Origin: an uncultured Gammaproteobacteria bacterium
GTDB lineage: Bacteria; Pseudomonadota; Gammaproteobacteria; JAGOUU01
Direction of reading: 5' to 3'
DNA: 64,000 nucleotides
Assembly: GCA_964609155.1 (NCBI GenBank)
Contig: CAZSRF010000007.1
Coordinates: 839-64,838, forward strand
The position numbers were made by a program, and so were the translations under genes. Positions within the stretch are counted from its first letter, which is position 1. Each line of letters opens with the position of its first letter. The notes under the pieces are model-generated. The model did no database searches and had not been told where the DNA came from. It worked only from the letters and a program-made list of their open reading frames with translations. Below, one piece after another: positions 19,620-20,561 of the stretch.

Positions 19620-20348
19620 CTATATTGTATAAACATAACAAGGAGAAGTATTTGGCGGAACATGCCATGATACTTCTATCTGTACCGTAGATTCTTTCGT
19701 TAAATGAATTAAGTCTTCCATCCTGTGCGTACTCATTACTGCTCGTACATTGGGGCTGTTATTTACTTTACCTGCAATAATACTCATCAAATTAGGACCA
19801 AAACACGTAGCATTACAAAAAACCAAAGAAACCTTTCTGAAATCAAAATTGATAATATTGATGTTCTCAAATTCTATGGTTTGTGACTTATTACCCCTAT
19901 CATCAATAACACCTGGACACACACGTTCTAAAGCACTAAATGCCTCCAAAGCAACTTGATGCCTAGCACTATCTATTTCCACACCGTAGCTATTTTTCAT
20001 TTGATAAGATAAATAAGCCTCAAGCACCGTTTTACCTGCCACTGACCCCAAATCAACAAAGCTATCATCTTGAGAAACCTTTACAAACTCAAATAACTTA
20101 GCTAAGCCCTCAGGAAGAATTTCACCATAAGTAAGAAATATCTTTTGCTGCGCAAGAGTTGCATCTTCTCTACTTAAAGCCGAAGTATAACCCGAACGCT
20201 CTTTATAGAGAATATTAAAAATATCTTTAAGATCAGGAATGCTTATTAGGGAGTGGCAATCAATATTCAACGTTATCTCTTTATCTTCCATGTTCTCATT
20301 GAGCATATAATTTAAAAAGTCCCTTATGTAACTATAAAACTTTTTCAT
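19620..20348 (-). CDS. DOT1-like SAM-dependent (histone-lysine-type) methyltransferase homologue
   Basis: Collinear similarity to the eukaryotic DOT1 catalytic core as I recall it. The matching stretches are TYGEILPEGLAKLFEFVKVSQDDSFVDLGSVAGKTVLE, YGVEID, LVFCNATCFGPNL and the C-terminal VSW...YVYTI. The SAM motif is DLGSVAG (nt 20034-20054). Confidence 0.8.
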   Translation of the reverse strand: MKKFYSYIRDFLNYMLNENMEDKEITLNIDCHSLISIPDLKDIFNILYKERSGYTSALSREDATLAQQKIFLTYGEILPEGLAKLFEFVKVSQDDSFVDLGSVAGKTVLEAYLSYQMKNSYGVEIDSARHQVALEAFSALERVCPGVIDDRGNKSQTIEFENINIINFDFRKVSLVFCNATCFGPNLMSIIAGKVNNSPNVRAVMSTHRMEDLIHLTKESTVQIEVSWHVPPNTSPCYVYTI

Positions 20349-20561
20349 AAGATAATATTTAATTTCCTATTTCAGATCTTAGGCCAACAAAGGTTAATAT
20401 TCAATGTATTAGATTATGGTACAGAGTATCTTTCTAAGAAAGTCCCTTATGTAACTATAAAACTTTTTCATAAGATAATATTTAATTTCCTATTTCAGAT
20501 CTTAGGCCAACAAAGGTTAATATTCAATGTATTAGATTATGGTACAGAGTATCTTTCTAAG
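20316..20561. repeat. Perfect tandem duplication, 2 x 123 bp, spanning the first 33 nt of the DOT1-like CDS plus 90 bp upstream
   Basis: Copy 1 (20316-20438) and copy 2 (20439-20561) read identically base for base. Confidence 0.95.

Follow-up and report, generated by a model that had tools for sequence, protein, structure and literature searches.

The start of a gene for a DOT1-like methyltransferase occurs twice, in two adjacent and identical 123-bp copies, in the stretch of DNA that we analyzed (64 kb in full, hereafter the window). We lean toward the view that this is a real, very young, and probably neutral duplication, generated by a homology-independent event, that leaves the native gene and its promoter unchanged. 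Taken more broadly, it is likely that the duplication is real, be it neutral or adaptive. Among bacterial mutations, short perfect tandem duplications form a well-known and transient class; with the gene and the promoter both intact, this one is of little consequence in itself. Provided that it is real, it is a clean natural case of duplication without homology in which one breakpoint falls at the center of a palindrome. The locus also offers a cheap check of assembly quality, since 123 equals a possible value of k−1 (see below).

Anatomy of the duplication

By direct string comparison, positions 20316-20438 are identical to positions 20439-20561. TRF reports the same array (20316-20561; period 123, 2.0 copies, 100% matches, 0% indels, score 492) as the only long tandem repeat in the 64-kb window. 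The repeat cannot be extended in either direction: the bases that precede the two copies are A (20315) and G (20438), and those that follow them are A (20439) and C (20562). Given the base composition of the window, the chance of 123 matches in a row is ~0.277^123 (~1e-69), and the identity is therefore not due to chance. The parts of the array are as follows:

20316-20438, minus strand: proximal copy, with the native 90-nt upstream region and the true start of the DOT1-like gene, of which it holds the first 11 codons
20439-20561, minus strand: distal copy, which repeats the promoter-like site exactly and supplies a pseudo-start (ATG at 20471 and 10 codons)
20433-20444, minus strand: the sole novel joint (20439/20438), which reads ...GGGACTTT/CTTAGAAAG...

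On the minus strand, each unit thus consists of 90 nt of upstream sequence, an ATG, and 10 codons (MKKFYSYIRDF), and the distal ATG (20471) is in frame with the real one (20348). Two adjacent head-to-tail copies with a single novel joint are what a recent tandem duplication leaves behind. A reading of the locus made earlier from the letters alone (the sequence-only reading) had described a perfect duplication of 123 bp that spans the gene start and the 90 nt before it; TRF and the string comparison both bear this out, and the coordinates that it gave for the duplication, the start (ATG at 20471), and the short open reading frame (ORF) opened there (stop at 20411-20409, with a 60-nt gap) are all right.

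Shorter or less perfect repeats occur elsewhere in the window, inside coding sequences. A 63-nt tandem repeat at 4658-4820 (2.6 copies, 92% identity, 21-codon units) lies within the gene for a 710-aa TolC-like outer-membrane efflux protein (4463-6595, minus strand). In-frame 9-nt repeats are found at 57012-57063 (AGAAAATAC, x4.6), in an ORF resembling DNA polymerase III delta (56830-57942), and at 13232-13267 (CTACTCTAA, x4), in a 556-aa ORF with no Pfam match (13062-14732).

The DOT1-like gene and its start

The gene affected by the duplication is intact, and its protein matches Pfam PF08123 with 53.8 bits, against a cut-off of 23.

19620-20348, minus strand: DOT1-like methyltransferase gene, 242 aa, intact (Pfam DOT1, PF08123, E = 2.4e-14)
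20040-20042, minus strand: codon GTG (Val103) in SAM-binding motif I, giving DLGSVAG instead of DLGSGxG

A profile built from the family also matches human DOT1L, yeast Dot1, and PDB 9ne1 (E = 4e-21), the last of which is probably the LpDot1 structure (the code does not appear in bioRxiv 10.64898/2026.01.11.698932). The family is small, with only 18 proteins found among 5.8 billion clusters. Its members are nevertheless informative about the start codon: the N-terminus read from ATG 20348, MKKFYSYIRDFLNYML, aligns with that of the homolog P0002, MKKLLHYLRNLINYML, and because homologous N-termini align with the product of the proximal start, we regard 20348 as the true one. For annotation purposes, ATG 20348 should be retained as the start, and the 20-codon ORF opened by the distal copy should not be called a gene.

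In motif I, DLG[SA]GxG is found in each of the 16 other family members, whereas the window protein has DLGSVAG and so lacks an intact DxGxGxG, with Val in place of the second Gly. The sister lineage (see below) has the codon GGG for residue 103, where the window has GTG. In addition, the window protein carries Q110E, at a position that is invariant in the 16 other family members. In LpDot1, the DxGxGxG motif is reported to be essential for SAM binding, and mutating two of its glycines inactivated the enzyme (bioRxiv 10.64898/2026.01.11.698932). Given that a glycine of this motif has been replaced, the DOT1-like enzyme with V103 may be weakened or inactive, to judge from its sequence. A weakened or inactive enzyme fits relaxed constraint on the locus and, more speculatively, a weakened one would give a reason for a duplication that raises dosage.

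Genomic context and relatives

The DOT1-like gene is located between obg, on the same strand, and rpsT (19315-19590), on the opposite strand. The surroundings are those of chromosomal housekeeping genes (rplU/rpmA, ppa, dusA, PFK, gyrA, rpsA, clpB, secDF, leuS, and minor pilins), and the G+C content of the window is ~34%.

20677-21693, minus strand: obg (GTPase), the co-directional upstream neighbor (Pfam GTP1_OBG, E = 9e-58)

The closest family member (P0002, 80% identical) is encoded in four independent Logan assemblies (L001-L004), which represent the sister lineage. Next in similarity, at 63-64% identity, are proteins from L005-L007 and L018, whose sources are MAGs of uncultured Gammaproteobacteria and contigs of two very large assemblies. 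The position between obg and rpsT is also found in these 63-64% relatives, indicating that the DOT1-like gene is an old resident of the clade. A scan of genome and metagenome contigs with the family alignment returned no locus from the same species, the closest matches being 63-64% identical. Exact-protein look-ups for the DOT1-like protein, Obg, and S20 likewise gave no record, and none of the collections searched yielded another sequence from this species.

In all four of the sister assemblies, the homologous upstream and 5' region is present in one copy. Among the more distant relatives, the spacer between obg and the DOT1-like gene is free of repeats in both L005 (131 nt, based on called genes) and L006 (39 nt, based on the corresponding ORFs). 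Because the sister lineage is single-copy and these relatives have no repeat upstream of the gene, the duplication is the derived state, and the lack of even one difference between the copies implies that it is very young. The earlier suggestion that the locus is very recent or unstable thus gains support from the single-copy sister lineage.

When we looked for an older duplication in the sister intergenic region, we found only the terminal repeats of an IS21-family element and an unrelated hairpin. The element (istA/istB, with five 23-nt terminal repeats; L001 1210-3724, also present in L002-L004) is located upstream of the DOT1-like gene, at the place taken by obg in the window, and the hairpin has 24-nt arms (L001 3770-3827). 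The sister intergenic region appears prone to rearrangement.

Several other features of these loci are worth recording. In the 63% relatives, a gene for a eukaryote-type protein kinase (Pfam Pkinase; L005 6931-8373) lies between the DOT1-like gene and rpsT; it is absent from both the window and L001. The DOT1-like genes of Legionellaceae/Francisellaceae MAGs directly follow apbC(mrp)-dcd (L008 861-3160, L009 2087-4579), so that two distant DOT1-like subfamilies (27-31% identity) each have a conserved position, one after obg and the other after apbC-dcd. Elsewhere in the window, a 362-aa protein with a weak match to Peptidase_C1 (papain family) is encoded at 14855-15943 (minus strand), adjoining a gene for a PPi-type phosphofructokinase. 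This arrangement is kept in the sister lineage (L001 8472-9551), and the 362-aa protein could be another eukaryote-like protein.

Promoter-like sites, flanking sequence, and leader

When the minus strand between 20700 and 20330 was scanned with relaxed sigma-70 settings, three promoter-like sites emerged, each scoring 8/12 and thus falling under the standard scan threshold of 9/12. Two of them are the same site in the two copies, and the third is a weak one (TTCTTA-16-CATAAT) created by the joint at 20440.

20376-20404, minus strand: promoter-like site P1, TTGAAT-17-TAAGAT (8/12), with a predicted transcription start near 20369 and a leader of ~21 nt
20499-20527, minus strand: promoter-like site P2, identical to P1, which would give a 144-nt leader holding the 20-codon ORF
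20613-20662, minus strand: weak hairpin immediately downstream of obg, with an outer stem of 8 bp and a trailing UUUUG

The site within the unit is conserved in the sister lineage as TTGAAC-17-TAAAAT (L001, where the 90 nt upstream of the gene are 73% identical to the window and the coding sequence 81%). This conservation provides modest support for placing the gene's own promoter within the unit. The duplicated segment includes the promoter-like site plus 34 nt upstream of its −35 element, and the outcome is a tandem of two identical predicted sigma-70-like sites, at 20404 and 20527. The second putative promoter that the sequence-only reading placed in the distal copy is accordingly plausible as a prediction, in that promoter-like sequence upstream of the gene is confined to the unit and has a conserved counterpart in the sister lineage. 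The ribosome-binding site that it placed there is doubtful, because the sole candidate is a GGA 16 nt from the ATG, and the usual Shine-Dalgarno spacing is 5-10 nt.

The hairpin at 20613-20662 is possibly the obg terminator. A terminator scan did not call it, and the region overall folds no better than shuffled sequences. It overlaps a stretch (20598-20640) that had been described as a partial MITE-like repeat abutting the duplication. That description does not hold: the stretch stands 36 nt from the duplication, and it has no copies beyond one 14-nt match. The match in question, the only meaningful one when 20562-20676 was compared with the window using BLAST, is the 14-mer CGGCCGGTATGACA at 20602-20615 and 34272-34285 (0.06 expected by chance). 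Neither the 43-nt stretch nor the 14-mer has a match in 97 related loci, and neither terminal inverted repeats nor a target-site duplication was seen at 20598-20640. We therefore set aside the MITE, whose defining features (multiple copies, terminal inverted repeats, and a target-site duplication) are wanting here. The 34272 copy of the 14-mer is part of a hairpin (ACCGGC-TCTTCG-GCCGGT) that is followed by a T run, and the 14-mer may, by its sequence, be part of some small, repeated element resembling a terminator. We also considered the flanking sequence at 20562-20676 as a decayed third copy of the unit and rejected it: the local alignment scored 21, a value attained by 40 of 500 shuffles (16.5 ± 2.6).

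Two short ORFs precede the gene:

20409-20471, minus strand: 20-codon ORF, MKKFYSYIRDFLRKILCTII and stop (20411-20409), opened by the duplicated start
20532-20600, minus strand: pre-existing 22-codon ORF, MKKYKSGSIWSFKLRKILCTII and stop, which ends on the same in-unit TAA as the 20-codon ORF

The 22-codon ORF shares its last nine codons and stop with the 20-codon ORF and begins with ATGAAAAA, like the real gene; the overall similarity of this region to the unit is not significant. Transcripts from P2, or those reading through from obg, would carry the 20-codon ORF, and those from P1 would not. The leader from P2 (144 nt, folded as a 193-nt transcript) has a minimum free energy of −22 kcal/mol versus −28.9 for shuffles (z = +1.84), so the P2 transcript folds worse than shuffled sequence, and the fold of the P1 leader is unremarkable. 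An Rfam search of the whole 64-kb window returned no match and thus no known leader or riboswitch. Over the 64 kb, no Rfam family reached the gathering threshold, be it tRNA, rRNA, riboswitch, or a known ribosomal-protein leader.

Breakpoints

The joint has zero microhomology, and there are no flanking direct repeats at the breakpoints, which excludes simple slippage between repeats. A blunt joint is compatible with a real event, because duplications with 0-1 bp of junction microhomology have been documented in experimentally evolved Pseudomonas (bioRxiv 10.64898/2026.05.22.727201). The distal end of the duplicated segment coincides with the center of a small quasi-palindrome:

20552-20570, no strand: quasi-palindrome TCTTTC(T)AAG/CTTGAAAGA, with 9-bp arms and its center at 20561/20562

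Equally good palindrome centers occur at 12 of 63,900 positions in the window (0.019%). Hairpin-forming sequences are hot spots for breakage and template switching, and the location of the distal breakpoint at such a center favors a real mutational event, as a coincidence noticed post hoc. The quasi-palindrome was also considered as a recurring operator, and this was rejected given that it is unique in the window and no counterpart was seen in the L001 alignment.

Alternative explanations

It is possible that the genome has a single copy and that the second was introduced during assembly, when a contig overlap of k−1 (or k) was joined without being collapsed; in variants of this explanation, the extra unit came from gap closing, from polishing, or from an assembly-graph loop that was traversed wrongly. 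Exact identity, exactly 2.0 copies, and a blunt joint are the look of an uncollapsed overlap, and the length is that of a usable k−1: 123 corresponds to k = 124, the largest k of IDBA-UD, a setting reported in at least 11 papers. Moreover, the duplication rests on a single 65-kb NCBI contig of an uncultured organism, and the collections searched hold no independent assembly of the species. However, the 64 kb contain no Ns and no second repeat of this kind, and nothing nearby marks a branch in the assembly graph (there is no repeat family, and no IS in the lineage). An uncollapsed overlap also does not predict a boundary at the center of a rare quasi-palindrome, and 123 is not a default k or k−1 of the assemblers used most. 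The k values concerned are 127 for SPAdes, 141 for MEGAHIT, and, by default, 100 for IDBA-UD. On balance, we consider an assembly artifact unlikely, with a probability large enough to be taken seriously. If, on the other hand, the duplication is real, it could have been kept for the extra expression of the DOT1-like gene that two promoters in tandem would give, either offsetting an enzyme weakened by G103V or acting as a copy-number-variable expression switch. In line with this idea, the duplicated segment takes in an entire promoter-like site and the 34 nt that precede its −35, and a motif I glycine that is invariant elsewhere in the family has undergone a radical change; the LpDot1 study calls this motif essential. 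Spontaneous tandem duplication is, furthermore, known to amplify weak functions and to activate foreign genes (PMC11111574). Yet there is no sign of more than two copies, of variation among samples, or of recurrence in relatives, and the perfect identity of the copies is just as well explained by a transient neutral variant. Tandem identical weak promoters are also at most additive in output and can interfere with each other. We thus regard adaptive retention as improbable. Even more doubtful is the elaborate form of the idea, in which the locus would be a real copy-number-variable promoter module whose expansion and contraction by 123 bp tunes a DOT1-like host-targeting methyltransferase, maybe selected to offset G103V.

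A further proposal, made in the sequence-only reading, is that the duplicated start acts as a decoy: ribosomes that start at the distal ATG would, by translating the 20-codon ORF, influence how the real ATG is used for initiation. The distal initiation region is the same as the real one from −90 to +33, and equal use would be expected on long transcripts. Nevertheless, the stop codon is 60 nt upstream of the real ATG (20348), a distance at which neither coupling nor reinitiation is expected in bacteria, and there is no close coupling and no alternative hairpin in an unstructured leader. Transcripts from the intact proximal promoter would be without the ORF altogether. The ORF is not conserved, being absent from L001-L007, and a comparable 22-codon ORF was there already. 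We therefore dropped control by a decoy start or upstream ORF as a working explanation on grounds of distance, fold, the Rfam result, conservation, and the pre-existing ORF; it seems to us hardly credible. More generally, we found no evidence of a regulatory role for the duplication.

Proposed origin and effect on the gene

In our preferred reading, that of a real, recent, and probably neutral duplication, the 123 bp would have been duplicated by homology-independent (illegitimate) recombination or by template switching, with one breakpoint at the center of the small quasi-palindrome upstream of the gene. The copied segment would comprise 33 nt of the DOT1-like gene, from its start, and the promoter region before it (−90 to −1). 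The proximal copy is the complete original from −90 on, leaving the gene, its start, and the core promoter unchanged, and the distal copy adds an identical weak promoter-like site 123 nt further upstream along with a truncated start.

Because the proximal copy keeps the native promoter and the ORF, the simplest expectation is little or no change in expression. The effect would be either none or a modest rise in transcription (up to about two-fold, roughly additive). A 20-residue peptide might be made from transcripts of the distal promoter or from obg read-through, and translational control is not expected. The array should be readily lost by slippage or recombination between the identical 123-nt copies, and it probably represents a neutral variant present by chance in the population that was sequenced.

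Comparison with known systems

The closest parallel to the proposed event is provided by the homology-independent duplications of Pseudomonas fluorescens SBW25, with junction microhomology in the 0-4 bp class (bioRxiv 10.64898/2026.05.22.727201). As here, these are head-to-tail, with one novel joint and no flanking repeat or microhomology. They are expected to be unstable, and the same is expected of the 123-bp array. The SBW25 cases are far larger (from kilobases up to hundreds of kilobases), and gene dosage was what they were selected for, whereas the segment described here is 123 bp and includes no complete gene.

The leader of ermC reportedly combines a conserved leader peptide with alternative hairpins (translational attenuation), an arrangement said to be disrupted by duplication. 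On plasmid pRJ5, the ermC leader reportedly carries a tandem duplication (Oliveira et al. 1993, cited in PMC9332259) that is similar to ours in being short and in affecting the 5' leader/start region. Unlike ermC, the DOT1-like locus has neither a leader structure nor a conserved leader peptide.

The TR34 and TR46 alleles of Aspergillus fumigatus cyp51A are promoter tandem repeats that raise expression. They resemble the present case in that a promoter segment is perfectly copied in tandem upstream of an intact gene. They differ in that a characterized activator site is duplicated, under drug selection and in a eukaryote; in the window, the palindrome at the boundary is split, not doubled, by the duplication.

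As for the gene itself, bacterial DOT1-like proteins of its family are rare, and the duplication adds nothing new on their biology. The window protein shares with LpDot1, which is secreted by Legionella pneumophila, a small size and a composition of the DOT1 catalytic domain only. The families are nonetheless distant (27-31% identity to homologs from Legionellaceae MAGs). The genomic context also differs, apbC-dcd in the Legionellaceae/Francisellaceae MAGs versus obg here, and the window copy has Val for the second Gly. A relative of the family from Legionella has recently been reported as a nuclear effector.
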